A DNA stretch of 64,000 nt from Nitrospirota bacterium (GCA_963818475.1 CAWFSF010000002.1:128001-192000); one strand, 5' to 3'. Positions 5,284 to 59,368 are shown, counted from the stretch's first letter. Translations and numbers: made by a program. The notes: generated from the sequence alone by a model not told the origin.

Positions 5284-5375
5284 GGACAGGATGCACGATG
5301 CAGGATGCAGGTAACCAGACTAAATCCGGTATCGTGTATCCTGCGTCATGTATCTTGCATCCTGTATCCTGCATC
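5284..5375. repeat. Heptamer-built inverted repeat between convergent genes
   Basis: CAGGATG/CACGATG units followed by complementary CATCCTG/TATCCTG units forming a long imperfect hairpin. Confidence 0.75.
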
Positions 5376-6069
5376 ATCTCTTCAGCAGCTCCCCCACCGT
5401 TACGAGCGTAAAACCCTTCTTGCGCAATCCTTCTATGATCTCCGGCAGGAATTCCGCCGTATGCACTCCATTGCGATTCATATGGAACACGATGATGCTC
5501 CCGCCCTGCGCGTCGCGCAAAAGGATGCGCACGATCCGCTTTGGCGACAGATCCGGGTCCGGATCGCCCGAGGCAATGTCGTACTGGATCGTCACCAGCC
5601 CCGCCTTTTTCGCCAGTTCCGCCACGTGCTCGTCGACCTCGCCAAAGGGCGGCCTGAAATAACGGGGCGTTTTGCCGGTCACCTTCTTGATCTCGGCCTG
5701 GGAGCGCTTGAACTCGCGGATGATGCGGTCGTCCGGCTTTTCCAGCAGGTGAGGATGGTAATAGGTGTGGTTCGCGATCTCGAACTGCGGCTGGCTTGCC
5801 AGGTATTTCGCCTTCTCCGCGTTTTTCTCTACCCATCTCCCGCTCATGAAGAGCGTGGCCGGCACCTGCTTTTGCATCAGGACTTCGATCACCTGACCGT
5901 CATACTCGTCGGGCTTTCCCGTGGGGCAGGAGTCAAAGGTGAGCGCGACTTTTTTGGTGTTCCGGGGACCGTGTTCGATGATGAGACTGGTGGGAGCTTC
6001 AGCAAAGGCCTGGGTTAGCGAGCAGAGTGTCAGGACCACGGAGATGAGCACGGCAGTGATAAAATTCAT
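5374..6069 (-). CDS. Secreted polysaccharide deacetylase (NodB/CE4 family)
   Basis: Signal peptide; VALTFD, NHTYYH, YFRPPFG, GSIIVFH motifs. Confidence 0.92.
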   Translation of the reverse strand: MNFITAVLISVVLTLCSLTQAFAEAPTSLIIEHGPRNTKKVALTFDSCPTGKPDEYDGQVIEVLMQKQVPATLFMSGRWVEKNAEKAKYLASQPQFEIANHTYYHPHLLEKPDDRIIREFKRSQAEIKKVTGKTPRYFRPPFGEVDEHVAELAKKAGLVTIQYDIASGDPDPDLSPKRIVRILLRDAQGGSIIVFHMNRNGVHTAEFLPEIIEGLRKKGFTLVTVGELLKR

Positions 6070-6252: not shown

Positions 6253-7255
6253 TTACAAAGGGAAATGGCACGCCACCTGGTGACCGCCGCCCATGTCGCG
6301 CAGTTTGGGTTCCTGTTGCAGGATCAATGCACTCAGCAGGACGGCCCTTGGACTCGTACACCGGGCAGCGGGGAGCGAACCGGCAGCCGCTGATCGGACG
6401 CTCGAAATCAAAGACGCCCCATCTGCCTGTTTGGGCAGTGGCAGCTTCCTTGTTCTGCTTTTCGACGAGCGACGACCACAGGATATGCGTATAGGGGTGA
6501 TAGGACTTGTGCGCAATGCGTTCCGAGAGGCCCATCTCGACGATCTTGCCGAGATACATGACCGCCACCTTGTGGCTGAGCAGTTCCACGACCCGCAGAT
6601 CGTGGGAGATGAAGAGGTAGGAAAGGCCGAGATCTCTCTGGAGGTCGCGCATCAGGTTCACCACCTGGGCCTGGATCGACACATCCAGAGCGCTCGTAGG
6701 CTCGTCAGCGACAATGAAGCGCGCGCCCACGGAAAGCACCCGCGCAATGCCGACCCGCCGCTTTTCGCCTCCGGAAAGTTCGTGCGGAAAGTTGGAGAGC
6801 TTGCTCTTTTTAAGATTGACCTGCTCCAGCAGCTCGCCGATCTTCTTGTCCGCGCCGGCCTCGTCCATCTGATGATGGACCGTGATCGCCTCCCGCAGGA
6901 TCTCGCGGATGCGCATCTTCGGGTTCAATGCTGCGTCCAGGTCTTGAAAGATCATCTGCATCTGGCCCCGCAGCCGGCGCAGTTCCTCGGCCGGCATGGC
7001 AATGACGTCCTTGCCGTCAAAGAGGATCTTGCCCGAGGTCGCCGGCGTGAGCCGCAGGATGGTTCTGCCGATCGTGGTTTTGCCGCAGCCTGACTCGCCC
7101 ACGAGGCCGACGGTCTCGTTCTCCTTGAGGTAAAAGCTGACGCCGTCCACCGCAGGTATCGCCTGCTCCTGTCTTTCCTTGAATGCGGACAGGAGCCCCT
7201 TGCGCTGAGCAAAGTGTTTTTTGAGGTCTATGACTTCGAGGATTGTTTTCGGCAT
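6253..7255 (-). CDS. Oligopeptide/dipeptide ABC transporter ATPase (OppF/DppF-like); indel near 6320
   Basis: [32 protein letters not shown]; the expected end HQVACHFPL is in ORF 6253-6516. Confidence 0.9.
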
Positions 7256-7292
7256 AAGAAACCAGTTTTAACACATCGTAAAAAGCTTAATC

Positions 7293-7469
7293 TACCACGG
7301 AGACACGGAGGCACGGAGAAATGCCTTTTAAATAATAGGGATTTTCTCGCGTCTCTGCGCCTCAGCGGTTCAACTTGATTTATTGTTAGTTGTTAACCTA
7401 TCAATATCTACGTCCTTTGTATTGGGTTATACTGCAGCCTTCTCTCCGTGTCTCCGTGCCTCCGTGGTA
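7293..7469. mobile_element. MITE-like inverted-repeat element built of 9-bp CACGGAGAC/CACGGAGGC units
   Basis: TACCACGGAGACACGGAGGCACGGAGA at left and its near-perfect reverse complement at 7441-7469, AT-rich core; same family as the ends of the GxxExxY remnant at 24.8-25.1 kb. Confidence 0.7.
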
Positions 7470-7481
7470 AAAAGACCTGCT

Positions 7482-8582
7482 TTACTCAAAATACAACCAG
7501 CACCGGACCTTATGCCCCGGAGCGATCTCCCGCAGCTCGGGCTCGTGGCGTTCGCACTTCTCTTTGATGGCATCGGTCACGCGGTTGCAGCGGCCATAGA
7601 ACCGGCAGCCTGCCGGGATGTTGATGGTATCGAGCACGTCCCCCTCGATCGCGTGGAGATAGCCTTTTTCCCTGACGTTTTGCGCGCTCGGAATGGACGT
7701 GAGCAGCGCGGCGGTATAGGGATGCTTTGCCGCTGCATCGACGGCAAGAATGTCGCGTGCCGGGCCGTGCTCGAAGACCGTACCGCCGTACATCACTGCC
7801 ACGCGGTCCGACAGGCGCGAGATGATGCTGATGTCGTGGCTTATGAGCATGGTGGTCACGCCGAGCTCGGACTTGAGCTCCGCCAGCAGATCCACGATCT
7901 TGGACTGGATGGTGGCGTCGAGCCCTGTAGTCGGTTCGTCAGCGATCAAAAGCGACGGCTCGCTTGCAAGCGCCATGGCGATCATAGCACGCTGGCACAT
8001 GCCTCCTGACATCCCGAACGGATGATTCTCATACCGGAGCCGCGGCGAATCGATCTTCACCCGGTCCAGCCAGTAGATCGCCCGGTCTTTTGCTTCCTGT
8101 TCGCTCGTGATCGCTGTATGGAGCTGGATGGCCTCGGCGATCTGTTTGCCCACGGTGGTAAAGGGATTGAGCGAAGACTTGGGGTTCTGGAAGATCATGG
8201 CGATCTCCTTGCCGCGCACCTTGCTCATCATGCTCTCTGCCCGCTGCTCCCAACCCTTCACGTCCTTTTGCACGGACATGATCTTGTTGTCCTTTTTCGT
8301 GAGCGTAACATAATCTCCCAGGTCCTGGAGCAGGTTCTTCTGGATGCGGTCGGTCTTTAACCCGATCTTGCCGCTGATCACGCCCGGACCGTCGCTGATG
8401 AGCCCCAGGATCGACAACGCGGTGATGCTTTTGCCGCTGCCGCTCTCGCCGACCACGCCCAGGGTCTCGCCTTTTGCGATCTTGAGGCTTACGTTGTCCA
8501 CGGAGCGAATGAAAGCCTGCTTGCTGCGGGAATAGAAATAAGTGCGAAGATCCTCTATTTTGAGAAGCGGAGCAGTCGTCAT
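7482..8582 (-). CDS. Oligopeptide ABC transporter ATPase (OppD/DppD-like)
   Basis: [43 protein letters not shown]. Confidence 0.93.
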
Positions 8583-9472
8583 TTGCCTCTCCGTCCTTCG
8601 AGGATATTGTTCAGCCCGTCGCCGAGCAGATGGAACCCCAGGATCGTGAACAGGATGGCGAGCGCAGGCGCCGTTGACGGCCAGAACTGGCCCTTCATGA
8701 AATAGTTCGCCCCGGACTGGACCATGTTGCCCCAGGACGGCGTGGGCTCCTGCACGCCGAAGCCAAGATAGCTCAGGGAGGTTTCCATGAGAATAGCCTC
8801 TCCCATACCGAGCGTTGCCTGGATGATCAACAGCGACCGGCAGTTGTGCCAGAGAATGTGCTTCAGGATGATCGTCCTCGTGGGAAGACCCAGCGCCATA
8901 TCCGCCTCGATGAAATTCTTCTGTTTCAGAAACTGGATTTTGCCCTTGATGAGCGAGGCTACGACCGGCACGTTCGTAATGCCCACGACGATCATGATGA
9001 CATAGATGTCCGGCTTGAACGCCGCGATCACGAGCAGAATGAGCACGAGGCGAGGAAAAGAATCGACGAGGTTCGTGAAATAGGTAATGAGGGTCTCAAA
9101 CCTGTTGCCGCGATATCCGGCGAGCACGCCGAAGAGGGTGCCGAAAAGGAGTGCAATGGAGATCGCGAGGAGCCCGGGCAGAAAGTAGGCCTGGATGCCG
9201 ACGATCAGGCGGGAGAGCATGTCCCTTCCCATGAAGTCCGTGCCGAGCAAATGTCCGGCAGTGCCCGGCCCCGCCATCATCAGCTCCAGGTCTATGTCCT
9301 GCGGGTCCTGCGGCAGCAGGTTGAACGAACCCAGGAGATAGGACACCACCACGAGCATAACGATCAGCAGCCCGTATGCCACATAGGCCAGGTCCACGGT
9401 GTCCGCTTTTTTCCAGAAAGGCAGGTCCGAGAACTCGCCGATCTCGCCGGATATTTGGGAATAGGTTTTCAT
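8579..9472 (-). CDS. Oligopeptide ABC permease (OppC-like)
   Basis: HLLGTDFMGRD, ETSLSYLGFG, PSWGNM. Confidence 0.93.
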   Translation of the reverse strand: MKTYSQISGEIGEFSDLPFWKKADTVDLAYVAYGLLIVMLVVVSYLLGSFNLLPQDPQDIDLELMMAGPGTAGHLLGTDFMGRDMLSRLIVGIQAYFLPGLLAISIALLFGTLFGVLAGYRGNRFETLITYFTNLVDSFPRLVLILLVIAAFKPDIYVIMIVVGITNVPVVASLIKGKIQFLKQKNFIEADMALGLPTRTIILKHILWHNCRSLLIIQATLGMGEAILMETSLSYLGFGVQEPTPSWGNMVQSGANYFMKGQFWPSTAPALAILFTILGFHLLGDGLNNILEGRRGK

Positions 9473-9638
9473 AATGATTCAGGGACAGGGTCCAGGGGCC
9501 AGGCAAAATAAATGACAGACGCTAATCCTGGACTTTTTACTGGTTTAATCTACGAGCGTGAACCAGCGATGCGATATTATTGTCATGCTGCTCTGCACTT
9601 CACATTCCGCAATCCGAAATCCGCAATCCGCAATCGGA

Positions 9639-10604
9639 TCATTCCTTCGATACTCTCGGGTTCACCGCCACAAACACCACGCTCTGGAAGAGGCTTCCGA
9701 GCCGAACGAAAACGGCGGCCAGGATCGCGATGCCCATGATCACGGGATAGTCCCGGTCCTGGGCCGCCTGCCAGGCCATCCTGCCCATGCCCGGCCAATT
9801 GAACACTTGTTCGACGATGACGGCGCCGCCGAGAATGAAGGGGATCTTGGCCGCGACGATCTCGGTTACCGGGATGAGGAGGCCTTCCTTGAACGAGTGC
9901 CTCCAGACCGAAGCGCCCTTGGCTCGGGCCGTGCGGATGTAGTCCTCGGCCATGACCCTGCCCATTTCGTCGCGCAATGAGCGGATCACCTCACTGATCG
10001 TACCGTTGCCCACGCCGAGCACGAAGATCGGGAGCAGGGCATAGAGCCAGCCGAACGTTTGGGAGGTCGCCGCATAACCGAAGGCCAGGGGGAACAGGCC
10101 GAGCTTGTGTGTAAAGAAATAAATGACGATATAACCGAGCCAGAACACCGGCAGCGCCGATACCACGTAGGCGAACATGGTGAGGGGCCACGAGATCCTG
10201 TTGATGCCGCGCACCACAGAATAGAGCGCGATAGGAACGGCGATCAGGAGTGTGACCAGCATGGACCCGATAGTAAGAATGAGCGTGTTGATCCCGACGT
10301 GCAGGACCTCGCCCAGGACCGGCATGCCGGTCCGGATCGAGGTGCCGAAATTTCCCTTAAGCATATTGGCAAGCCAGGAAAGGTAGCGTGCATACCATGA
10401 TTGGGGAACACCCTGGACCTCGTGCACGCCTGCACGGGATTCACCGGACGACACCTGCCCTTCCAGCAGGGCGCTGAAGGGGTCACCGGGAGAAAGGTAC
10501 AGAATAATGAAGACCACGAAGCTCACCCCGAGCAGCAGGAGCAGCGTGATCGCCACCTCCCGGGAAAGCACCAGGGCTACGGGCCTGATTGCAGATAGTT
10601 TCAA
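9639..10604 (-). CDS. Oligopeptide ABC permease (OppB-like)
   Basis: PGDP, GNFGTS, DYIRTARAKG, EQVFNWPGMG, RDYPVI. Confidence 0.93.
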   Translation of the reverse strand: MKLSAIRPVALVLSREVAITLLLLLGVSFVVFIILYLSPGDPFSALLEGQVSSGESRAGVHEVQGVPQSWYARYLSWLANMLKGNFGTSIRTGMPVLGEVLHVGINTLILTIGSMLVTLLIAVPIALYSVVRGINRISWPLTMFAYVVSALPVFWLGYIVIYFFTHKLGLFPLAFGYAATSQTFGWLYALLPIFVLGVGNGTISEVIRSLRDEMGRVMAEDYIRTARAKGASVWRHSFKEGLLIPVTEIVAAKIPFILGGAVIVEQVFNWPGMGRMAWQAAQDRDYPVIMGIAILAAVFVRLGSLFQSVVFVAVNPRVSKE

Positions 10605-10650
10605 CGGCGGTTATCCTTGATATTCATTCCACATTCCGCATTTCAAAAAC

Positions 10651-10739
10651 CGTCATTGCGAGCGTAGCGAAGCAATCTCGCCGTTCGTATTTGACTGATA
10701 AATCGAGATTGCCGCGTCGCTCTGCTCCTCGCAATGACA
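10651..10739. repeat. CGTC-type palindromic repeat (REP-like dimer)
   Basis: CGTCATTGCGAG..GCAATCTCG / CGAGATTGC..CTCGCAATGAC nested inverted repeats. Confidence 0.8.
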
Positions 10740-10799
10740 GCATTAGGGCTGCGGTTGCAGTTTGCCGCCCTGCTTTTCATTCCGCAATCCGAAATTGAA

Positions 10800-12414
10800 T
10801 CACTTCTGGTTCTTCTCCTCCAAGAACCACTCATCGGCAAAGGAGAAGAACTTGTACGGATGGATCGCCACGCGGCGGATCTTCTTATGGTATGCCGCGT
10901 AGTTCGTGAGCGTCCAGAGGAAGGTATAAGGGTTCTCCTCTGCCAGAATGGCATGCAGTTTGCGGTTGATGGTCCGCCGCTTCTCGTGGTCCAGCGTGAG
11001 CTTGCTTTCGTTGATCAGGCCGTCCACCTCGGGGTTCGAGTAGCCGATGAAGTTGTTCTTATGCAGCCCGATCTCGGCCGAGTGGAACAAGGACGAGATA
11101 TCCGCCGAATCATCGAAGACCCAGGAGGCGAAGACGATATCAAAATCATGCTCCTGGAACACGTCCTCTTTCCAGGCATACCACTCCTTGAACTCGACCT
11201 TGACGTCCACGCCGACGTTCTTGAGATAGTTCTTGAACGCGAGCACCACGCGCTTCACCGCCTCGCTTTCCTTCTCGATCGGCACCTTGAGGGTCAAGGA
11301 CAGCCGCTTGCCCGACTTCTCCATGATGCCGTCGGCGCCCCGGGTGAAACCCGCTTCCTGCAGGAGCGCTTTCGACTTTTCAGGATCGAACGCGAGGGGC
11401 TGCACGTCGAGATTGTAGGCCCAGCTTCCCGGCGCGAAGGGTCCGGAAATGATCGTCCCCTGGCCGTTAAAGAAGGCGTCGAGCATCTCCTGCCGGTTCA
11501 CGGCATGGGTGAAGGCCCTGCGCACGCGCGCATCGGCAAGCAGCGGGTTCCGCAGGTTGTAGCCGAAGAACGAGTAGGAGAGCGCGTTGTAAGGCTGCAG
11601 GATGAAGCGCTTGTCTCCCTGGATCTCAGGGATGTCCCGCGGGTTCACGAGCACGATCATATCGATGGCGTTGAACATGAGCGCCTGCGTCATGATGTTC
11701 TGGTCCGCAAAGGGCTTTGCCGCCAGCTTGTCGATATGGGGCCGCCCCTTGAAATAGTCTTCGTTGGCAACCAGCACGATCTCCCGCTCGGCCGTAACGT
11801 CCTTCAGCATATAGGGGCCGGTGCCGATGGGATTCTGAACAAAGGGGTCTTCCCGGGTGAGGTACAGGGAATTGGTCGGGCCGTGCTTGGGGATGATCTT
11901 GAAGCTGAACTTTGCAAGGGCGTTCAGGATCGGCCGTTTGAGCGTGAACTTCACGGTCGCGTCGTCGATCTTTTCGACACGGGAGATGAACTCGTAGCGC
12001 ACCTTGAGCGGCGTGATGGTCCTGGGGTGCATCATGATATTGTACGTGAAGACCACATCGTCGGCCGTGAACGGCTTCGGCTGTTCGCCTTCGCGCGGGT
12101 GCCAGGTCACGTCCTTGCGCAGGTGGAAGATGTAGGTGTTCCGGTCCGGCGTCTCCCACTTCTCCGCCAGCTCCGGAACGATTTCCTGCTTTTCGTTGAT
12201 GCCCACGAGGCCGTTGAAAATCAGCTCCGTGAGCCGCAAGCGAGATCATCTCGTTGCTCGTGATGGGGTCAAGGGTCGCCGGCCGGCCGTATTCGCCGTA
12301 GCTGAGGCTGCCCCCGTCCGGCCGGTGGTCTTTCTTACTGGCTGCCCCTGCAGGGGCCACTGCGATTATGGCCATGGAAACGATCAAAAGTAGAACCACC
12401 AGTATACGTTTCAT
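10800..12414 (-). CDS. Family 5 solute-binding protein (OppA/DppA-like); indel near 12240
   Basis: Signal peptide and PATLDPITS in ORF 12414; continuation LIFNGLV..PELAEKW, FTADDVVFT, PIGTGPY in ORF 10800-12239. Confidence 0.92.
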
Positions 12415-12430
12415 ATGCTCCTCCTCAGAT

Positions 12431-12516
12431 TCGAATTCGGAATGCCGAATGCGGAATACGAAAACAAAAGGACATGCCTTCGTTCTTACCGCATTCCGAA
12501 TTTCGCATTCCGCATT
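12431..12516. repeat. Heptamer-built inverted repeat (GCGGAAT/ATTCCGC)
   Basis: TCGGAAT GCCGAAT GCGGAAT ... ATTCCGA ATTTCGC ATTCCGC; related units at 9603-9635 and 10625-10642. Confidence 0.75.
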
Positions 12517-12520
12517 AGGT

Positions 12521-14008
12521 TCAATTGATCTTCACATCCCCTGCGCTCTTGTGCTCCATGGCATACACTCCCTGCATGGCCTCCTGGAGCTGGCGCACTT
12601 CAGGAAACTGTTTGCTCATCTCGAAATAGATCTCAAGGGCTTCGGAGAATTTTTTGGTCCTGAAATAGGCATCAGCAAGACTTACGAGCATCTCTGGATC
12701 GTTCGATTCTATCTTGTTCTTGTTGCTCTTGTCGCGGCCTGCCTCAAGATAGGTGACCGCCCGCGCAGTATCCAGCCTGCCAAGATAGTATTTACCCAGC
12801 GCGATATTCAGGGTCGAGAATTTCCTGCCCTCACCTGCTTCAACCGCTGCCGCGCTCCGCCGGGCCGCATTCGAACATTCTGCTTTCAATCGTCTGCAGG
12901 AGAACAGTATCTCTGCGAGCACGTCAGGGTCCTGGGATGGTTTCCCGGCAAGCTCGTCCCAGACCTTCATGGCATCCGTTTTCCGATTCATAGAGTACAA
13001 ATTGGCAGCCTGCAGCACCCGTGCCTGATCCTTGAACTGCTGGGGCAGCTGGGCAGTTGCAAGGAACGAATCAGCAGTCTTCCTGGACCGGTCCGCTGAT
13101 CCGAACAAAGCGTAAGCCTGTCCGAGGTAGAACTCAGCGGAACCCTTGACCTTGGCGTCGGCAGCGGCCTTTTCGAGACAGGCAATGCTCGCCTGTCCAT
13201 AGAGCGAGGCCATGTCGTCCAGCAAAGAAAGATCGTAAAAATTGATGACCTTTGACTTGCCCAGCGTCTCCCGATAGGAGAAGGCTTTCAGGTCGGCACG
13301 CTTGAGCAGATCCAAGCCCTTCTCGGTCAAGCCGGCCCGCGCGTAGACCGCGAGGAGGTTCTTCACCATCCTTATGGAGAGCGGCTTTCCGCGCTTCGTC
13401 TGGCTGGCAAGGCTTTCCTCCGCCAGCGCCAGCGGATCCTTGTCCTTGAGCCCCGCCCTGCTGTACGCCGCTGCCAGCTCGGCTTTCACCTCGGGATCGG
13501 CGGAATCGATGGCCGCCCAGAGCGGCGCCGCCTTCGCCGCCTCATTGCCTGCCTGATAGCTCAGTCCGAGACGCACCTGGGCGATCGCCTGGTACTGCGG
13601 GTTCAGTCCTTCATTGGCAAGGAACTGCCTGAGATAGATCGCGGCAACATCGGCCTTGCCGGCCTCGATCAGTGCATCGCCCATGTACAGATCAACAAAA
13701 CGGCTCCGGCTGCTCCCCCGAAGGGCCGATAGCTTTTTCAGATAGTCCTGCGATGCCCATGCCGAGGCCAGGTAGAGCTCGCGGTGCAGCACCGCGTTCT
13801 TAAAATAGGTCATGCCGAGCGCAAGGTTCAGTGAACCCTGTTTGGCCTGGCCGAGCGATGCGGCATTGGAGCGAAGCAGACCGGCTGCTTCGTCATAGTG
13901 CCGCTTTTCATAGAGTTTCACCGCTTTGGTCACGATATCGTCGGCCCCAGAGGCTTGCGCCGCGATAATAAGGCTCATCGATACAAAAAATAACACGAAA
14001 CGTCCCAT
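12521..14008 (-). CDS. Secreted TPR-repeat protein
   Basis: Signal peptide (AQASGA); several TPR-like helices (LALGMTYFK, FYLGQAY, LADAYFRTKKFSEALEIY). Confidence 0.8.
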   Translation of the reverse strand: MGRFVLFFVSMSLIIAAQASGADDIVTKAVKLYEKRHYDEAAGLLRSNAASLGQAKQGSLNLALGMTYFKNAVLHRELYLASAWASQDYLKKLSALRGSSRSRFVDLYMGDALIEAGKADVAAIYLRQFLANEGLNPQYQAIAQVRLGLSYQAGNEAAKAAPLWAAIDSADPEVKAELAAAYSRAGLKDKDPLALAEESLASQTKRGKPLSIRMVKNLLAVYARAGLTEKGLDLLKRADLKAFSYRETLGKSKVINFYDLSLLDDMASLYGQASIACLEKAAADAKVKGSAEFYLGQAYALFGSADRSRKTADSFLATAQLPQQFKDQARVLQAANLYSMNRKTDAMKVWDELAGKPSQDPDVLAEILFSCRRLKAECSNAARRSAAAVEAGEGRKFSTLNIALGKYYLGRLDTARAVTYLEAGRDKSNKNKIESNDPEMLVSLADAYFRTKKFSEALEIYFEMSKQFPEVRQLQEAMQGVYAMEHKSAGDVKIN

Positions 14009-14026
14009 TCCAACTCCTATCCGTTC

Positions 14027-14054
14027 TGTGGGGGCGGTTTAGAACCCCCGCTAC
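14027..14054 (-). repeat. GTAG-type REP-like palindrome overlapping the stop codon
   Basis: Minus strand GTAG-CGGGGG-TTCTAAAC-CGCCCCC. Confidence 0.5.
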
Positions 14055-15355
14055 TTCAATTTCATGGTATAGATCTGGTCCCACTGATCGACCTGTGCTC
14101 GGAACGCGATGCTCCCGTCCGCTGAGCAGGCGACATCGTGGTTCATCTTCGTGTCTGTTTTGATCGGTGCGATCGTCTTCTGCACCACATCGGCAATATA
14201 GAGCGGATTGTATTCCTGCCGGTCGTTCTTCACGAAGACGATATGGCTGCTGTCGGGCATCCAGGCCGGCCCTGTTTCCACGTCGGGGATGATATCCGCT
14301 GCCACGACCTTTGCAGCAAGGCCTTCTCCTGCGGAAGGGTCCGTGCCGTCGGCTGCAACCACGAAGATCGACCAGATCTTCGGGTCTTCTGCCGCGTTGT
14401 GATTGGAATAGAACGCGATCTTTCGGCCATCGGGCGACCAGACCGGCCGCAGGTCGTCAGAGGCCCAGGTCGTGATGCGCATCTGCGACTCCGTTGGCCT
14501 TGCCACGTCATTAATTACGAGGATGTCATGGTTCTCGTTGCTGCCGTACATCGTGGCGATCTTTCCGCCGTCCGGCGACCACTTGGGGTAGAGGTATGCT
14601 TTCCCTCCCCGGGTCAGGCGCGTAAGCGCCCGGGACAACAGGTCCATTCTATAGAGGTCGCCGTTACCGGTGCGGCCCGACACGAACACCAAGCGATCGG
14701 CGGCAGGAGACCACTGCACCTGTCCGTCCTTCTCCTTATGCTCCGTAAGCCGCGTCGCGGCTTCCCCGCCGAGGTCCTGGAAGAAGAGGTCGTAGTTGCC
14801 CTCGCCGCCGTTGCTCATGAACACAAAGCCGTTCTCCCGGGGCGACCAGCTGATGCCGGCATTGTAGCTCGTCTCTTCCGATACCCCGGGGAAGAAGAAC
14901 TTGACGTTATTCCCGCCCGATGAAAGCAGGGAATAGACCGTCTGGACGGGCGTACCGTCAGGCAGCACGATATGGATCTCCCGTTTGTCACCCACGCTCC
15001 GTTCAAAGGTGATGAGCGTGCCTTGCGGCGACCACTGGGGGTTCGAATCGTTGCGTCCCTGCTCGATGGCCACCAGCGGCCTGACGAACAGGGGCACCAG
15101 TGCCTGGGGCTTTTTTTCTTCAGGTTGTGCTTCCGTCCCTGTCCCGGCAGATACAACTCCCGCAGGTGCACCAGGAAGCGGAACCGCAGCGCTGTTCGCT
15201 GCAGCTCCATGCTGTCCGGTTCCCGTGACAGTCGTAGTTGCCGCTGACGAGATGGGATCATCGGCCATCCCTGCACGCGGCTGGAGCAACAACATCAGAA
15301 CAACTCCCAAACCGCCAAAACACTTCCTTGCCTTCACGCCGTGAACCTCCTGCAC
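14051..15355 (-). CDS. TolB-like beta-propeller protein (PD40 repeats), exported
   Basis: Repeated PxWSPDG motifs (PQWSPQG, PKWSPDGG, PVWSPDGR, PAWMPDS); signal peptide then an Ala/Thr/Pro-rich linker. Confidence 0.88.
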   Translation of the reverse strand: MQEVHGVKARKCFGGLGVVLMLLLQPRAGMADDPISSAATTTVTGTGQHGAAANSAAVPLPGAPAGVVSAGTGTEAQPEEKKPQALVPLFVRPLVAIEQGRNDSNPQWSPQGTLITFERSVGDKREIHIVLPDGTPVQTVYSLLSSGGNNVKFFFPGVSEETSYNAGISWSPRENGFVFMSNGGEGNYDLFFQDLGGEAATRLTEHKEKDGQVQWSPAADRLVFVSGRTGNGDLYRMDLLSRALTRLTRGGKAYLYPKWSPDGGKIATMYGSNENHDILVINDVARPTESQMRITTWASDDLRPVWSPDGRKIAFYSNHNAAEDPKIWSIFVVAADGTDPSAGEGLAAKVVAADIIPDVETGPAWMPDSSHIVFVKNDRQEYNPLYIADVVQKTIAPIKTDTKMNHDVACSADGSIAFRAQVDQWDQIYTMKLK

Positions 15356-15358
15356 ATC

Positions 15359-17935
15359 CTAAAGGTTCTTGATCTGGTCCCAGTATTTCTCTGCTGTCTC
15401 GCGGGCCTGCTCAAAGGTGCTGTTCCCTTCGAGCTTTTTTGGGAAGAAGTCAAAGTACTCGCGCCACGCCAGGTTTGCGTCATTCAGGAGGTTGCCCTTC
15501 CGCGTGAGCTGATAGAGTTTGTGGTACGACAAAGCCGTGTAGTAGTAGGTGTCGTGCACGGCCTCGTCATAGCGGTCATTCGGGAAGAACCGGGTGTTCT
15601 GTTTTGCTTTCTGGAGGTTCTGGATGGCCCTGGCAAAGCTCACTGCAGCCGCGTCCTTGTCCTTCGGCACCAGAGCGCTGCCTTTTTCATAATAGGCGTG
15701 TCCCAGGTTCATGAAGGCCACGGAGAACTGCTTGAACACCAGCTGCTGGTTCTCGGGCAAAGACAGCACGTTCTCGAACTCGCGGATGGCGCTGTCGAAA
15801 TCGCCTTTGTCGTCCAGATAGACCTGCGCCAGCCGGTGATGGGTCTCCGAATAGTCCGGATGGCCCTTCTCGGTGCTCTGGTACGCATTGATCGCAGCGT
15901 CAAAGTCTCCCTTCTGCTCCGCCCGTGCGCCGATCTTCAGATAATCCTTCGGCAGGTTGATCTTCGCGCTGCCCGTGCGGTTCTCTTCCTTCTTTGAGAA
16001 CTCCATGACCTCTTCCCAGTCGCGGTAGTCGCCGCCGACCGAGACCCTGACGGTGTGGAAACCCAGGGTAACCGGCTTCCCCTCGCGGATCGGGGTGCTG
16101 CCGATCTTCTCTCCATCCACAAACACCTCTGCACCCGATGGCTCCGATTCGACCTTGAACACCGCATTATTGACCGCCAGCGTGAAATCCTTCGCGTCTT
16201 TGTTCTTTTCGATCTTCACTGTCTCGGTCAGTTGCTGGTAGCCGTGCCGGTAGAGCACGAGAGTGAGGTTCTTGTTCAGGCGCACCGGGACCTCGGCCTT
16301 GCCGTCGCTCCCGGTCGTACCGAGCCATTCGTTGTTCACGTAGATATTCACGCCTGCAAGCGGGGAAACGTCGGGAGGCAGGCCGCCCCTGGCGGAAAGG
16401 ATGAAAGTGTTGCGGGCGCTCTCTTCCTCTCCTTCATGATAGATGCGCCGCACCACCCGGTCGCCGATCTCGATCTTTGCGCCTTTTTTAAGATCCAGGA
16501 CCTCGGTCCAGGAGCCGTTCCCTTCGGTCTTCTTGACCTGCAGCCTGCCGGTCTCGCGGTAACCCGAGACCTTGCCGTCCGCATTGAGCTGCGGAGACAT
16601 GAGCGTGAAGTCCGTTCCCTTGCTGATCTTGTAGTCCGCCCTGCCGAGGTTGATGCGGTAGCGTTCATCGTCGACGGCGATCACCGTGCCTTCGAAGGGG
16701 AACCGTCCGAGCACCGCGGCGGCGATCTCCTTGGCCGCGCTGTTGATGTTGTCGGCGCTCTTGGCCCGCGTGAGCTGGCTCAGGATGAGCTTTCCGCCCG
16801 ATGTGTAGAACTTGGTCTCGATCAGGTAGCCTTTGTCGTCCTTGGCAACGCTGCCGAGGACGATCATGTCCACGGTCTTGCGCAGCGGCGTTTCGCGCCA
16901 TCCCTTCACGGTGATCTTGTCGATATTCAAGCGCGCGCGCTTCATGTCCGCCTGGAGCGTTTTGGAAGGCACTTCACGGAAGCAGGTGTTCTTGAAGAGC
17001 TGTGCTGCCAAAGCAGTCTCGGTCTGGGACACGATATCCTGAAGGTCGACGTTCGGCGTGTTGCCCGCGAACCGGTAGATGCCGGCCCGGATCTGCTTCG
17101 GCGTGCTGGGGTAGAAATAGTGCTCGATTGTGACCTCGCCCTCAAGCGTGATCGTGGTTTTCCACACCCCGGGGATTGAGCCGGGTGCCGAGAGCGACAA
17201 GGGCACTTTCTTGCCCGGTTCGCCGTCGTAGGTGTAGGTAAAGACGCCTTTGGCGTCGGTCTTGCCTTCGGTCTTTTTGTTGATGGCCACCACAACACCC
17301 GGGATGCCGCTCGTCTGCCCATACTCTTCCCTGAGCGCGCGGACCGTGACGATCACGCGCTTGGAAAGGGCGGCTTCGATCGTCTGGCCAGGCTCCACCG
17401 GGCCGGTCCTGCGCCAGGTGGCATAGCCGGACTTCGTCACCGCAAGGTCCAGGCCTGCCTTGGGCTGATCCTTGTACTCGTACACGAACAAACCCTGCGC
17501 ATCGGTCTTGCCGGCTTCCGTGCCCGCGGCCATGACGATTGCGTCCTGAATCGCCGTTCCCATTTCGGCGGCCTTGATCGTAATGTACCGTGTTGCTTCG
17601 AGCTCCGCGGAAAGGGGATAGGTTTCGACGCTGCCTGACTTGGGCAGTTTCATAAGAAACGTGCCCTTCCAGGGCTTGATGCGGTAGCCAGGCAACTCTC
17701 TGGCAGTGACGACCACCTCCACATCAGCGCCCGGCTTTTTCCTGATCGTCTTCGTAAAAATCCCGTCCGCACCGGTGAAGCCCTGCTCCTCGTTGTCCAC
17801 CGTTACTGTTGCCTGTGCCGCCGGTTGGCCATCAAGGCGGGCCATTACCTTCAGTTCGAGCTTCTCGCCCGCGCAGGCAAAGAGCAGGGATGACGCCGCC
17901 ATCACAAGAACTGTCCTGAATACACGCTTCATCAT
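15359..17935 (-). CDS. Large lipoprotein: repeated beta-sandwich domains, central alpha/beta + beta-barrel (CsgG/FlgT-like) module, PEGA domain, C-terminal TPRs
   Basis: Lipobox LFAC; repeated GKTDAxG motifs; VESEPSGAEVFVDGEKIGSTP (PEGA); TPR helices (HHRLAQVY, FMNLGHAYY). The FlgT-like call is my motif impression only. Confidence 0.78.
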   Translation of the reverse strand: MMKRVFRTVLVMAASSLLFACAGEKLELKVMARLDGQPAAQATVTVDNEEQGFTGADGIFTKTIRKKPGADVEVVVTARELPGYRIKPWKGTFLMKLPKSGSVETYPLSAELEATRYITIKAAEMGTAIQDAIVMAAGTEAGKTDAQGLFVYEYKDQPKAGLDLAVTKSGYATWRRTGPVEPGQTIEAALSKRVIVTVRALREEYGQTSGIPGVVVAINKKTEGKTDAKGVFTYTYDGEPGKKVPLSLSAPGSIPGVWKTTITLEGEVTIEHYFYPSTPKQIRAGIYRFAGNTPNVDLQDIVSQTETALAAQLFKNTCFREVPSKTLQADMKRARLNIDKITVKGWRETPLRKTVDMIVLGSVAKDDKGYLIETKFYTSGGKLILSQLTRAKSADNINSAAKEIAAAVLGRFPFEGTVIAVDDERYRINLGRADYKISKGTDFTLMSPQLNADGKVSGYRETGRLQVKKTEGNGSWTEVLDLKKGAKIEIGDRVVRRIYHEGEEESARNTFILSARGGLPPDVSPLAGVNIYVNNEWLGTTGSDGKAEVPVRLNKNLTLVLYRHGYQQLTETVKIEKNKDAKDFTLAVNNAVFKVESEPSGAEVFVDGEKIGSTPIREGKPVTLGFHTVRVSVGGDYRDWEEVMEFSKKEENRTGSAKINLPKDYLKIGARAEQKGDFDAAINAYQSTEKGHPDYSETHHRLAQVYLDDKGDFDSAIREFENVLSLPENQQLVFKQFSVAFMNLGHAYYEKGSALVPKDKDAAAVSFARAIQNLQKAKQNTRFFPNDRYDEAVHDTYYYTALSYHKLYQLTRKGNLLNDANLAWREYFDFFPKKLEGNSTFEQARETAEKYWDQIKNL

Positions 17936-18003
17936 ACGAGGCCTCCGTAGAGCTTAAATATTTGAAACATCACACGCTTATACACGTACGGAAAAGTCAT
18001 AAT

Positions 18004-18075
18004 TACCACAGCGACACAGAGGCACAGAGAGAAGCGATCTGAAATCCTAATTTTTTCCTCTGTGTCTCTGTGGTG
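18004..18075. repeat. Inverted repeat of the CACAGAG family
   Basis: ACCACAGCGACACAGAGGCACAGAG ... CTCTGTGTCTCTGTGGT. Confidence 0.7.
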
Positions 18076-18108
18076 AAATGTTTTTTTGTTCTTTTCCTTG
18101 CGAGGAGC

Positions 18109-18558
18109 CTACATGGTCGGCGGCTGGATATTGACCTCGCCGGGGTTTACGATCTTGTCCTCGTCGGACTTTGAGCCTTCGATGCTCCTGCGCGTGCTCT
18201 CGGGGATCTTCTTGATCCTGAAGTCAGCCTTCTTGCCGCCGAACTTCGAGACCTCCAGAGACTGCGTCTCGGTCATATAACCGATCCTGCTCACTTCCAC
18301 TTTATAGAGGCCGGGAACAATGGCGTCCTTGGCGGATTCGTATTTCCCTTCCTTGTTGACCACAACGGAGTGGGACGCTTTTTCCAGGCTCGTCGAGGTA
18401 TTGATCAAGTTCACCACGGTTCCCTCTGGGAGTTCTTTGGTCAATGGAACGGGCTGCAGGGCGGCATCCACCAGCTGCACCGTACCGTAGATGCGGGGCG
18501 AACAGGCCGGCAGCACGGCAATAAGACAGGCACACACGAACAGGATCGAACGATTCAT
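18109..18558 (-). CDS. Small lipoprotein with carboxypeptidase-regulatory-like beta-sandwich
   Basis: Lipobox LPAC; IYGTVQLV...EGKYES...PGLYKVEVSRIGY pattern; SD GGAGG. Confidence 0.8.
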   Translation of the reverse strand: MNRSILFVCACLIAVLPACSPRIYGTVQLVDAALQPVPLTKELPEGTVVNLINTSTSLEKASHSVVVNKEGKYESAKDAIVPGLYKVEVSRIGYMTETQSLEVSKFGGKKADFRIKKIPESTRRSIEGSKSDEDKIVNPGEVNIQPPTM

Positions 18559-18614
18559 GATCTTCTCCCTCCTGGAGCGTAAATTACAACAGCCGGCATC
18601 GAAGCGTTATCGTT

Positions 18615-18664
18615 TGAAAACAAAAAACCGCCAAAGAGCTCATGAGAAATGATATCTTTGGCGG
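18615..18664 (-). terminator. Intrinsic terminator forming the riboswitch expression platform
   Basis: CCGCCAAAGA...TCTTTGGCGG followed by TTTTTTGTTTT; its 5' arm is the 3' strand of aptamer P1. Confidence 0.85.
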
Positions 18665-18790
18665 CTCGACTGGCGTATAAAACAGCGACAGCTTCCCGGG
18701 TGAAATGGTACACTCGGATGCAAAGTCTGTTTTACGTAGCTTCGTGGCTCTGCGCCCCACGGTTTCCCGTGGTTTGCTCTGAGCAAAGTC
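18656..18790 (-). ncRNA. GEMM-I (c-di-GMP-I family) riboswitch, A20 variant
   Basis: CTTTG..AGAGCAAACCACGG-GAAA-CCGTGGGGCGCAGAGCCAC.. long P3 (TAAAACAG/CTGTTTTA) ..GCCGCCAAAG; P1 CTTTG/CAAAG. Confidence 0.88.
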
Positions 18791-18818
18791 ATAGGGTATG
18801 GCACAGCTTCGTAGAAAG

Positions 18819-18847
18819 AATTTAGCACGAGTGTTAGAGCTTGTCAA
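18819..18847 (-). promoter_or_regulatory. sigma70-type promoter of the riboswitch-led operon
   Basis: TTGACA-17-TAAATT with extended TG. Confidence 0.7.
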
Positions 18848-19098
18848 GGGAGCAACAACATTATGCAATTCCCCTGCAGCACGCTGTTGTCGCAATAAAG
18901 CGCATGTTTTGATGCCGCCATAAGACCGCGGACGCGTTGTTCCAAAGCGAATGATTCTGAACAGAAGCGACCTCTCCGCAGAACCTGTTAAATGATCGCT
19001 CGAAAAAATTATAAAAAACCATTGCCAGCGAGCCGCTGCTGATGTATTATGCGTGGTTGCGTCACCTGCCTCCCCGGACGGCGCTTGAAAGGAATATC

Positions 19099-20977
19099 AT
19101 GCTCCAGGTCGCGAATATAGAGAAATCCTACGGCAAGCAGACGCTGTTTGACGGCGTCAGCTTTACGGTAAATCCCGGAGAACGCGTGGGCCTCGTGGGC
19201 CGGAACGGCCACGGCAAGTCCACGCTCTTCCGCATGATCCTTGGGGAAGAGCACCAGGACGACGGCACGATCACGACGCCCTGCGGGCTACACCATCGGC
19301 CATTTGTCGCAGCACATCCACTTTACGGAAAAGACGGTCCTCGAGGAGGCCTGCCTCAGCCTGCCGCCGAACGAAGACCACATAGACGAGACCTATAAGG
19401 CCGAAGCGATCCTGCACGGCCTGGGCTTCACCAACAACGACTTCGACCGTTCTCCGGACGAGCTCTCAGGCGGCTACCAGGTGCGCCTGAACCTCGCCAA
19501 GGTCCTGGCCTCCATGCCGAACCTTTTACTGCTCGACGAACCCACGAACTACCTCGACATCCTCTCGGTCCGATGGCTCACGCAATTCCTCCGTGCCTGG
19601 CGCGGAGAGCTTGTCATCATCACCCATGACCGCGAGTTCATGGACAGCGTCTGCACCCACACCATGGCGATCCACCGCGCCAAGATGAAGAAGGTCGCGG
19701 GCAGCACGCGAAAGCTCTACGAGCAGATCCTGCTCGAAGAAGAGATCTACGAGAAGACCCGCCAGAACGACGAGAAAAAGCGGAAAGAAACAGAACAGTT
19801 CATCAACCGCTTTCGCGCCCAGGCCACCAAAGCCAGCGCGGTCCAGTCACGCGTCAAGGCGCTTGCACGGCATGAGCAGCTCGACAAGCTGGAGGCGATC
19901 AAGAACCTCGAGTTTTCGTTCCAGTCGGCGCCTTTTTCGGCCAAGTGGCTTCTGAACACCGAAGAGCTCTGCTTCTCCTTCACCGACGACGGGCCCAACC
20001 TCATCGACGGCCTGACCTTTGCCGTGGGGAAGAAGGACCGCATCGCCGTCATCGGAAAGAACGGCAAGGGCAAGACCACGCTGCTCAACCTGCTGGCCCG
20101 GGAACTGCCGCCCTCCTGCGGCGAGATCAAACACCATCCGAACATGAGGCTCGCCTACTTCGGCCAGACGAACATCAACCGGCTGAACCCGGCCAAGACG
20201 GCGCTCCAGGAAATCATGGACTCCCACCCGGACCACGCCCACGGCATTTCGCGCTCCATCTGCGGCGTCATGATGTTCGAAGGGGACAATGCGCTCAAGA
20301 AAGTGAGCGTGCTGTCGGGCGGCGAGAAGAGCCGCGTGCTGCTCGGCAAGCTCCTTGTCTCGCCGGCGAACCTGCTCATGCTCGACGAGCCCACGAACCA
20401 TCTGGATATGGAGTCCATCGACTCGCTCATCGAAGCGATCGACGTGTTCGACGGCGCGGTCATCATCGTGACGCACAGCGAACTGATGCTGCACGCCCTG
20501 GCAACCCGACTCATCGTGTACGACAACGACACCATCAGCCTCTTTGAAGGGACCTACAGCGACTTCCTCGAACGGGTGGGCTGGGGCGAAGAGGGCGGGC
20601 CCAAAAAGAAGAAACAGAAAAAGAACGCGGACACGAGCGCGAACACCAAAGGCAACGGTGCCAAGGACGCCAAACGTCAGCGCACCACGCTCATGAACGA
20701 CCGCTCAAAAGCGCTGGGGCCGATGGCTGCTCAGATTGCTTCCCTAGAAGCGACCATAACGGGGCTCGAGCAAGCTGTGGAAAAGGACACGCAGGCGCTT
20801 GCGGCTGCTTCCTCCAGGGGCGAAGCCCTCGCGATCAGGACGCTCTCGCATTCCTTGCGCGAGAATCAGCAGAAGATCGATACGCTCTTTGCGGAGCTTG
20901 AAGCGCTCACCGCGAAACATGACGCGAAAGCGCAGGAGTATGACAAGCAGTTGGCTGAACTGGCAGAGGTATCGTAG
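19099..20977 (+). CDS. ABC-F family ATPase; indel near 19280
   Basis: GRNGHGKST in the first ORF; [29 protein letters not shown] and a coiled-coil tail in the second; no TM segments. Confidence 0.9.
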
Positions 20978-57991: not shown

Positions 57992-59239
57992 TTAGTCTTT
58001 TGCGTGGCACTTGTTGCAGAGAGACCGCTGATAAGAACCGTAATGCATCGTGGTGTCATTGTATGCTTTTGTGGTCTCTGCTACGGTACGGCCTTGTGCG
58101 TACTTCGGCTGGTTGGCAACGAGGCTCGGAGAATCGGTGCCCGGCCATACGCCGTCAACAGCGATGAACTCGCCTGCATTGTTCCACCGACCCATGAATT
58201 CCCATCCGCTTGCATGCGACTTGTGGCAGGAGAGGCACATGACCCGGTCACTCGTTGCAGGTCCTTCCGGTTTGGTGCCGTCGTTCACGGCCAGGGCCTT
58301 AAGAACGGCATAGTCTGTCGTATTGTCGGTCTGGAACGGAGCGAGTGAATCGAATGCAGTTGCGAGCGTTCCTGCCAGGTTGCCGCTGCCAATATATGAG
58401 TTGTAGATGCCCGCAACAGTGGTGCCCAGCGTCTGATTAACCGGGTGGGTCATCTTTGAGCTCGTGCCGGAATGCATATCCGGGTGGCAGGTTGCACACC
58501 AGTCGGTAATCCCGGCTCCATAGGCTACACGGGTAGGAGTTGCTGCCTCTGTTCTGTTATACGTGCTCGGAACAACCGCATTAAATACTGCATTGAAGGT
58601 CTTGCCGCCGGAACCGGCAGAAGAACCCGTTCCGCGAAGGATACGGTATGCGCCGACTGCCTGGCCAGCTAACGGGGTAACACTGTTGTTGTAGGAACCG
58701 GAAGCGATGATCGGGGCGCCGGTAGTGGCAAAGGTCCCGTCAGAAAGCCTTCTCAGTACGCCGTGGTTGTCATGGCAGCTATTGCAGCCGAGCTGTGTTG
58801 CATCCATGTCGCCGCCGGGAGCTACCGTGTTTTTTGCATCAGCGGTATAACCAAAGTCAGCGGCTACGATATTGTGGCCGTGGCCATCGCCAAGGTCAAC
58901 ACTGGTGGTGCCGGTTCTCGGGACATACGTGTAGGTCTTCTTGAGCCAGCCGAAGTCTCCGCCCGGGGTCCTGTTTCCCGGAGGGGTGCCTGCGGGCATA
59001 TCCGCATCAGGAGTGACAATGTGGTAGCTGGATGCGCCTGTTGCGCCGTGGCAACTGATACAGGTGGAGCTGATGTCCGTATTATTCAGAAGGGCAGAGG
59101 TGCTTTTTGCATCGTGAATATTGTGGCAGCCCATGCACTCTGCAACGCCGCCGCTATGGAACGCGAAACTCGTGCTGCTGAGCCCGAAAGAGAAAAGGCC
59201 AACAGCGACAATGATAAGGCTTAATTTGACGATCTTCAT
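57992..59239 (-). CDS. omcS: Hexaheme outer-surface cytochrome, OmcS family (nanowire subunit homolog)
   Basis: Mature N-terminus FHSGGVAECxGCH, TPGGDFGWxKKTY, GHNIVA, STYNRTEA..TRVAYG, terminal YQRSLCNKCHAKD; six CxxCH; matches Geobacter OmcS motifs as I recall them. Confidence 0.93.
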   Translation of the reverse strand: MKIVKLSLIIVAVGLFSFGLSSTSFAFHSGGVAECMGCHNIHDAKSTSALLNNTDISSTCISCHGATGASSYHIVTPDADMPAGTPPGNRTPGGDFGWLKKTYTYVPRTGTTSVDLGDGHGHNIVAADFGYTADAKNTVAPGGDMDATQLGCNSCHDNHGVLRRLSDGTFATTGAPIIASGSYNNSVTPLAGQAVGAYRILRGTGSSAGSGGKTFNAVFNAVVPSTYNRTEAATPTRVAYGAGITDWCATCHPDMHSGTSSKMTHPVNQTLGTTVAGIYNSYIGSGNLAGTLATAFDSLAPFQTDNTTDYAVLKALAVNDGTKPEGPATSDRVMCLSCHKSHASGWEFMGRWNNAGEFIAVDGVWPGTDSPSLVANQPKYAQGRTVAETTKAYNDTTMHYGSYQRSLCNKCHAKD

Positions 59240-59259: not shown

Positions 59260-59337
59260 CTCCGGCAGACCAGCCATCCCGTTTCCGGGATCTGTGACTT
59301 TGTGCCCCCACCTTGCGGTGAGTTTACCCGTTCGGAG
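59260..59337 (-). ncRNA. GEMM-I (c-di-GMP-I family) riboswitch upstream of omcS, G20 variant
   Basis: CTCCG-AACGGGTAAACTCACC-GCAA-GGTGGGGGCACAAAGTCACAGATCCC..GGGATGGCTGGTCTGC-CGGAG; P1 CTCCG/CGGAG; ends about 10 nt before SD AGGAGG. Confidence 0.88.
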
Positions 59338-59368
59338 GATCGATTGTTGCCGGCAATGCCGACAGATT

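Follow-up and report, generated by a model that had tools for sequence, protein, structure and literature searches.

Opp-type importers are usually treated as self-contained five-protein machines. The operon described here lies in a 64,000-nucleotide stretch of a Nitrospirota bacterium genome (GCA_963818475.1 CAWFSF010000002.1:128001-192000; the whole stretch is called the window below). It shares with the described importers of the PepT family (Opp, App, Dpp, and Nik) a family-5 binding protein (SBP_bac_5), two BPD_transp_1 permeases, two oligo_HPY ATPases, the gene order A-B-C-D-F, and an aspartate of the DppA D408 type. It differs from them in having four genes for exported proteins (g1 to g4) fixed in front of the transporter genes, in having OppA as its most conserved protein, and in its predicted riboswitch control. 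We conclude that the operon is a real, undescribed variant of the Opp importers. In agreement with the original prediction for this DNA, no account of the nine-gene set was found in the full-text literature, a search that left most subscription papers and the primary gene lists for cyclic GMP-AMP (cGAMP) riboswitches outside its scope.

A second point of comparison is the tetratricopeptide repeat (TPR) protein-associated transporter TPAT of Treponema pallidum (TatT-TatP-TatQM). Its TPR protein binds the binding protein, and a relay of cargo from the outer membrane is proposed (PMC5812351). The likeness lies in the TPR-type gene that stands beside the binding-protein gene here, in 53/53 loci of one survey and 16/16 of another. 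However, the transporter in our operon is of the ATP-binding cassette (ABC) type and not a TRAP transporter (DctP/DctQM), there are three more accessory proteins, and the pocket looks peptide-type and not lipid-type. The proposed likeness of g4 to TatT is one of role. On the reading we prefer, the operon would work like TPAT but is not TPAT, because its transporter is an ABC system.

That reading, held tentatively at a probability of about 0.42, is of a peptide-type importer whose OppA would be docked by g4 and g3, with a lipoprotein tie to the outer membrane in the full form, and which would be induced by cGAMP together with other surface genes. In several phyla the TPR gene keeps its place next to oppA, and the propeller and the outer-membrane lipoprotein scaffold are optional; this points to a mechanism, so far unstudied, by which a binding protein is loaded or positioned in the periplasm.

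Operon layout and sequence integrity

Nine open reading frames (ORFs), all on the minus strand, lie within positions 6253-18558 of the window. Behind a GEMM-I aptamer they run 5' to 3' in the order g1, g2, g3, g4, oppA, oppB, oppC, oppD, oppF. ORF calls and Pfam thus agree with the earlier description of nine co-oriented genes, comprising a small lipoprotein, an 858-amino-acid (aa) lipoprotein, a PD40 protein, a TPR protein, and oppABCDF. The features are as follows.

18819-18847, minus strand: predicted sigma70-like promoter, TTGACA-17-TAAATT, 10/12 consensus positions, TG before the -10 element
18657-18788, minus strand: GEMM-I aptamer (RF01051), 49.2 bits (gathering score, 35), E 1.3e-6
18617-18664, minus strand: intrinsic terminator (stem 18664-18628 plus U-run) whose 5' arm is the 3' P1 strand of the aptamer
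18109-18558, minus strand: g1, 149-aa lipoprotein with one immunoglobulin (Ig)-like (CarboxypepD_reg) domain and a conserved C-terminal tail
15359-17935, minus strand: g2, 858-aa multidomain lipoprotein with PEGA, CarboxypepD_reg, and TPR (Pfam)
14051-15355, minus strand: g3, 434-aa secreted PD40 (TolB-like) beta-propeller with a variable linker before the propeller
12521-14008, minus strand: g4, 495-aa secreted TPR protein (Pfam TPR) with conserved last 100 residues
10800-12414, minus strand: oppA-like gene for a family-5 binding protein of about 537 aa, SBP_bac_5 (Pfam)
9639-10604, minus strand: oppB-like permease gene, BPD_transp_1 (Pfam)
8579-9472, minus strand: oppC-like permease gene, BPD_transp_1 (Pfam)
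7482-8582, minus strand: oppD-like ATPase gene, ABC_tran and oligo_HPY, with Walker A, signature, Walker B, and H-loop in the sequence
6253-7255, minus strand: oppF-like ATPase gene, ABC_tran and oligo_HPY (Pfam)

The CarboxypepD_reg match of g1 falls below the Pfam cut-off. All five transporter subunits score above theirs, so that a full oppABCDF set, as first claimed, is present by domain content, but oppA (1615 nt) and oppF (1003 nt) are each one base longer than an open frame. In the assembly, a one-base insertion near 12238 splits oppA, and one near 6316 puts about the last 20 codons of oppF out of frame. Both breaks are probably assembly errors, since the extra bases are missing from related contigs, the ORFs of relatives are whole, and another region of the same assembly (a DUF11/OmpA cluster) is also heavily fragmented. 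The divergent ABC-F gene at 19009-20977 (plus strand) is split near its start and whole in relatives such as L066, another likely assembly error.

Intergenic spacers in the window range from -4 to 226 nt, and we can only infer that a single promoter serves all nine genes and that they are co-transcribed. The promoter scan returned 7 sites against 4.6 +/- 2.5 in shuffled sequences, weak evidence when taken alone; a comparable TTGACA/TGnTA pattern stands upstream of many related loci. In a search of sequencing runs, none was listed as containing this strain or its RNA, and the shares were small (0.05-0.12).

Conservation of the gene set

We collected 99 loci through g2, with duplicates and close kin counted, and followed gene order as far as the contigs reach. 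Gene order was kept for g1-g2 in 68/68, g2-g3 in 86/86, g3-g4 in 67/67, and g4-oppA in 53/53. Within the transporter, the counts were 47/47 for oppA-B, 39/41 for oppB-C, 37/37 for oppC-D, and 34/34 for oppD-F, the two oppB-C misses being loci that end 1.0 and 1.6 kb after oppB. All nine genes are present in 28/99 loci. By title, the hosts are Nitrospirota, Thermodesulfobacteriota/Desulfobacterales, Rokuibacteriota, and Gammaproteobacteria, and the nearest relatives (86-92% in g2) are titled Nitrospirota. Flanks vary between lineages, each flank family being limited to at most 9 loci. In the neighborhood check proposed with the original prediction, the four accessory genes keep their synteny with the OppA clade from one phylum to another. 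The nine genes very probably function as a single unit.

The OppA clade occurs in 48/301 genomes of the bacterium's own phylum and 42/63 of its own family; elsewhere it was found in 15/401 (phylum of G301), 7/101 (phylum of G302), and 11/16 (order of G303). The operon was not found in 20/63 family genomes, several of them nearly complete. The survey reached four phyla and relatives down to about 40% OppA identity.

A second search started from OppA, and 16 neighborhoods were read in which OppA is 39-79% identical to that of locus L007. A g4 homologue lies directly upstream of oppA in 16/16, including the most distant group (hhalign probability 98.4, E 7e-15), whereas no g4 homologue adjoins the genome's two other family-5 binding proteins. 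Loci L105, L135, L141, and L144 hold the full form or part of it. Four gammaproteobacterial loci (51-55% OppA identity) are arranged as g3-g4-oppA-B-C (three, with oppD or oppF also reached in two of them before the sequence stops) or as g4-oppABCDF (one). A further 11 OppA matches lie at 40-44% identity, and 8 neighborhoods were read (among them L140, L131, L136-L138, L142, and L143). In 8/8 of these distant loci, oppA is preceded by a secreted protein "X", a PEGA-TPR protein (probability 98.4 against g2), and a TPR lipoprotein resembling g4 (98.4 against g4). Downstream, 7/8 also have a second secreted protein as well as a propeller (99.9 against g3). The first secreted protein has 400-460 aa with a C-terminal CarboxypepD_reg domain in 8/8 loci (for example, L140:5830-7146). 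The second has about 590 aa and occurs in 7/8 loci; the two copies scanned gave no Pfam match (for example, L140:16052-17893).

Because the g4 homologue adjoins oppA in 16/16 loci, distant forms included, the constant core is the TPR gene plus Opp, nearly always with the propeller; the variable parts are the lipoprotein scaffold and the riboswitch.

The transporter and its binding protein

Judged by profile scores, the transporter genes are PepT-family members outside the named orthologue groups: no equivalog cut-off was reached for OppA, DppA, AppA/Opp4A, NikA, SapA, or GsiB. The best NCBIfam match for OppA is Opp4A, with 208.5 of 650 bits (a 479-aa piece was scanned). Its nearest solved structure is Bacillus subtilis AppA (1xoc, E 9.5e-62), followed by Escherichia coli DppA, and both rank above every NikA structure. 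The aspartate equivalent to DppA D408, a residue reported to bind the peptide alpha-amino group (PMC8566422), is kept in 44/44 OppA sequences.

Across 25 whole loci, with three frameshifted loci left out, mean identity is 82.8% for OppA, 77.8% for OppC, 75.9% for OppF, 73.9% for OppB, and 73.1% for OppD, followed by g1 (67.2%), g3 (66.6%), g2 (64.8%), and g4 (55.1%). Binding proteins are usually the most variable subunit of an importer. The apparent constraint on OppA fits extra partners or one fixed ligand. A complex prediction for OppA of L007 with residues 200-470 of g4 (alignment A8) gave 0.00, 0.64, and 0.00, with the mark at 0.32, and is evidence neither way.

The exported proteins

Lipoboxes with an invariant cysteine are present on g1 and g2 (Cys19 of g1 in 20/20), and plain signal peptides can be read from the sequences of g3, g4, and OppA. 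No NCBIfam equivalog cut-off was reached by g1 to g4 or OppA, and no catalytic domain came to light in g1 to g4. Conservation of g1 is concentrated in its tail and that of g4 mainly in its last 100 residues, a C-terminal patch that persists across the distant forms. The two tails (g1, 18109-18170; g4, 12521-12550) are short, strongly conserved, and alike in a G-[DE]-V-x-I motif, and they may act as docking strands or as ligands.

The structural model of g2 (predicted local distance difference test score, pLDDT, 83.8) starts with three Ig-like domains, continues with an alpha/beta domain and a small barrel, and ends with a further Ig-like domain, PEGA, and a C-terminal TPR. The alpha/beta domain resembles FlgT and the TolB N-domain, and the barrel resembles the FlgT C-domain; together they span about residues 275-500. 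Modeled alone, residues 275-502 reach pLDDT 92.9, and their best Foldseek match is FlgT (E 2.7e-12). In VIA-align two folds tie for the top rows, the TolB N-domain with Z 12.1 over 114 aligned residues (rmsd 2.5) and FlgT with Z 11.8 over 202 (rmsd 8.0); CsgG (10.3) and PelC (10.1) follow. Identity of the module to FlgT or TolB is about 12-16%. Structure-cluster leads for residues 275-505 were CsgG/LpoB/FlgO at 0.85-0.90, while a wide fold search with whole g2 returned almost only TPR matches and g4 matched generic TPR clusters. CsgG and PelC form rings in the outer membrane. FlgT also belongs to a ring, as part of the Vibrio H-ring (PMC6814793), and g2 may have a ring role. A CsgG-type pore was considered for g2 and rejected: the modeled alpha/beta domain spans about 135 residues, none of its strands is longer than 10, and it lacks the long transmembrane beta-hairpins by which such a pore is known.

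In the model, residues 275-502 of g2 have the FlgT middle and C-terminal arrangement, and the alpha/beta part matches the TolB N-domain, while g3 is a TolB-like propeller (133 of 343 bits against the TolB model TIGR02800, below its cut-off). Unlike in FlgT and TolB, the module is embedded in an Ig/PEGA/TPR lipoprotein, and N-domain and propeller are on separate genes. The operon also differs from Tol-Pal and flagellar systems: Pfam and NCBIfam found no TolQRA, Pal-like, or OmpA-domain gene among its nine genes, nor does it contain flagellar genes, so that it does not qualify as a Tol-Pal system.

The leader and its predicted ligand

The claim of a GEMM-I aptamer with an overlapping terminator stood up, with a score above the gathering threshold and a stem and U-run on the 3' end of the aptamer. 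The P3 loop carries a long insertion. Model position 11 (equivalent to Vc2 G20; window base 18778) is an A, and the G20-to-A change is described as the mark of cGAMP-binding GEMM-Ib aptamers (PMC6140456). By this base, the window aptamer is an A20, cGAMP-type GEMM-Ib variant, with cGAMP as its predicted ligand. A20 is found in 25/25 aptamers of related loci and also in L141.

The scan that returned the promoter site did not list the stem at 18664-18628. In predicted folding, the terminator fold has -71.6 kcal/mol against -51.6 kcal/mol with P1 forced, and computed folding and conservation both make the terminator mutually exclusive with P1. A hairpin that starts in the aptamer 3' strand and is followed by a U-run was found in 25/25 aptamer-bearing relatives (21 folded, 4 by eye). 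Because the terminator stem overlaps P1, ligand binding should switch transcription on, and the leader is predicted to be an ON riboswitch.

The genome has 8 GEMM-I matches, 4 of them with A20, the window leader included. The other three A20 aptamers precede a gene for a Big_2-repeat protein, a DUF11/OmpA/beta-barrel cluster, and a gene for a 570-aa lipoprotein without a Pfam match; the Big_2 and DUF11 genes are of the adhesin type. The proposal of a surface-lifestyle complex gains from these surface-protein genes. The large DUF11-repeat/OmpA-domain/beta-barrel cluster behind its A20 aptamer (C6:1564000-1578500, minus strand, locus L102) is in many pieces in the assembly. A second GEMM-I aptamer in the window (59261-59338, minus strand, 55.3 bits) has G20, the c-di-GMP type, and precedes a multiheme cytochrome gene (Paired_CXXCH) in an ORF ending near 57995. 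In this genome, A20 aptamers thus stand before surface and uptake genes, in contrast to the window's G20 aptamer before a multiheme cytochrome gene.

The leader shares with the GEMM-Ib/Hypr systems of Geobacter (GacA, GSU1937) the RF01051 fold, A20, terminator control, and a membrane-anchored Ser348 GGDD[F/Y] cyclase in the genome (PMC6140456, PMC6456294, PMC8835794). It differs in that its target is an importer operon and in that regular-expression searches found no GacA-type Ser348/GGDE[FY] cyclase in the genome; the corresponding DNA pattern gave a single putative match among 61 genomes. A Pfam scan of the genome gave 27 matches, of which 26 were translated. It revealed locus L160 (C6:1078227-1079606, plus strand), which encodes a TM-CHASE3-HAMP cyclase in which Ser stands at the site of the canonical Asp (GacA position 348) and the motif reads GGDDY. 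The DNA pattern of a Ser348/GGDDY cyclase is present in 47/63 family genomes, and the related cyclase loci read have Ser in 12/12, with GGDDF in 8 and GGDDY in 4. GSU1937 (Ser348, GGDDF, N-terminal membrane domain) is reported as a tested cGAMP synthase (PMC8835794), and by its sequence features the L160 cyclase is a candidate cGAMP synthase that appears to resemble it. An earlier view of the genome as one without a cGAMP synthase was dropped once the Pfam scan had found the Ser348/GGDDY cyclase, given GSU1937 as a precedent for the GGDD[FY] type.

Two further cyclase-type genes differ from that of L160. A paralogue at C6:940893-942272 has Asn at the Ser348 position and the motif GGDDF. Locus L145 (C6:2265717-2266814, minus strand) encodes a GAF-GGDEF protein with Ser348 and GGEEF, found in 15/15 family genomes with Ser in 14/14 loci; this pairing is reported to be inactive in GacA and not to occur in natural enzymes (PMC6456294). 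No SMODS/CD-NTase match was found in the genome, which is 91% complete. Sequence features thus make cGAMP plausible as the operon's signal, and cyclic di-GMP (c-di-GMP) is possible too.

A proposed mechanism and its weak points

We propose that cGAMP, and possibly c-di-GMP, stabilizes P1, which would block the terminator and allow read-through. The lipoproteins g1 and g2 would be attached to the periplasmic face of the outer membrane, where g2 may assemble into a ring through its FlgT-like module. Gene order and conservation suggest that the TPR protein g4 and the propeller g3 would dock OppA to this scaffold, as TatT docks TatP in TPAT. Given its pocket residues, the ligand of OppA would carry a free alpha-amino group, as a short peptide or something similar does, and would probably originate from the cell surface or envelope during surface-attached growth; OppBCDF would import it.

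Several observations weigh against this reading. Motif search found an aptamer before g1 in 25/60 related loci with at least 420 nt upstream and none in the other 35/60. An Rfam check gave 9 matches among 18 of 19 GTDB loci, all titled Nitrospirota, and no match in 14/15 further loci, the single match being L141. With an aptamer in only 25/60 and 1/15, the riboswitch is an add-on outside the conserved core and second-messenger control is lineage-limited. Several natural A20 aptamers bind cGAMP and c-di-GMP alike (PMC6140456). Within the family, the Ser/GGDD[FY] cyclase occurs about as often in genomes without the operon (15/20) as in those with it (32/43), and a co-oriented canonical-Asp GGDEF gene lies 0.3-0.5 kb upstream of g1 in 7 loci (L024, L026, L027, L043, L052, L069, and L074), 3/7 of which lack the aptamer motif. 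The idea of an HD-GYP protein at that place was rejected, the shared upstream domain being the canonical GGDEF.

On the protein side, g1 and g2 were not found in 4/4 of the gammaproteobacterial loci, one of which is also without g3, and no FlgT-like module was detectable in the 8 distant loci, the profile of this module giving no match to their upstream "X" protein (probability 12%). The outer-membrane scaffold is therefore dispensable, and the accessory set as first described keeps its four genes across the 99-locus form, but only TPR plus Opp is constant beyond it. A shared fold alone shows no function. Pfam and NCBIfam scans found no enzyme domain or outer-membrane channel among the nine genes. 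The counterpart of DppA R355 is ambiguous in a low-confidence loop alignment, with a Lys nearby in 33/44 sequences.

A stronger version of the proposal would make the operon a new importer class, in which a ring-forming FlgT-like lipoprotein anchored in the outer membrane, the propeller, and the TPR protein bridge the periplasm and load a near-invariant OppA with a specific surface-derived peptide signal, an ABC counterpart of TPAT and, in Nitrospirota, a direct cGAMP output. A feedback loop is conceivable here, since amino acids are reported to raise cGAMP in Geobacter (PMC8835794). We regard this version as rather unlikely.

Alternative explanations

The conservation of OppA above the ATPases would also suit an ABC unit repurposed for envelope building or upkeep, in which OppA would be a sensor or a fixed component, and ATP hydrolysis would power a Tol-like scaffold, or send signals to it, instead of feeding the cell. 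The TolB-N-like domain in g2 followed by a TolB-like propeller in the next gene fits this picture, as does an OmpA-domain lipoprotein before the propeller in one reduced locus (L133). However, OppA keeps the amine-binding Asp and a nearby Trp of peptide-binding proteins, the operon has no TolQRA or Pal-like gene, and, not having been found in 20 of the family genomes, it is unlikely to be essential. We consider this explanation improbable.

Smaller still is the chance that the importer recycles peptidoglycan or surface-protein fragments and that the scaffold places OppA where the wall is remodeled, a cargo-specific form of the importer reading we prefer. Family 5 includes murein-peptide binders (3o9p, 4toz), but they score far below AppA/DppA (E 4e-29 vs 1e-61). 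The g2 alpha/beta fold is common to LpoB, PelC, and CsgG. Next after the operon, both in the window and in L005, comes a gene for a polysaccharide deacetylase, yet this gene has its own promoter-like site and is downstream in 1/19 GTDB loci, and no amidase or peptidase gene was recognized among the recurring flank clusters.

A similarly low probability attaches to mere co-regulation, with accessory proteins and importer serving the same process and making no contact. Spacers of 106-226 nt between several window genes and the unrelated ORFs between oppB and oppC in L017/L030 and L018 would be expected of such an arrangement. It is at odds with the position of g4, which stays directly before oppA even in distant forms that have lost, exchanged, or relocated g1, g2, and g3, and with the conserved C-terminal patch of g4.

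Import of nickel or another metal chelate, as by NikABCDE and CntABCDF of the same superfamily, is very unlikely: nickel-type NCBIfam models are among the top OppA/B/C matches (all below cut-off) and putative NiFe-hydrogenase genes, assigned by eye, are found some 5 kb away from two of the 8 distant loci (L137, L138), but AppA/DppA rank above every NikA structure, the genes that recur in the flanks of the 99 core loci include no recognized metal-enzyme gene, and the sole regulatory element found is a cyclic-dinucleotide aptamer.

To return to the docked peptide importer, the A20 riboswitch and the GSU1937-like cyclase suggest cGAMP signaling in a large uncultured Nitrospirota family; the literature we found on such signaling concerns mainly Geobacter, Myxococcus, and Bdellovibrio. 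The short leader and the soluble OppA, g3, and g4 are amenable to direct in vitro work.

Minor observations in the window

The secreted polysaccharide deacetylase gene 3' of the operon, an arrangement seen also in L005, occupies 5374-6069 (minus strand), with its promoter-like site at 6102-6075. Short palindromic, repeat-like sequences occur in the spacers at 12415-12520, 17990-18075, and 7290-7370, and similar sequence is present in the spacers of relatives.

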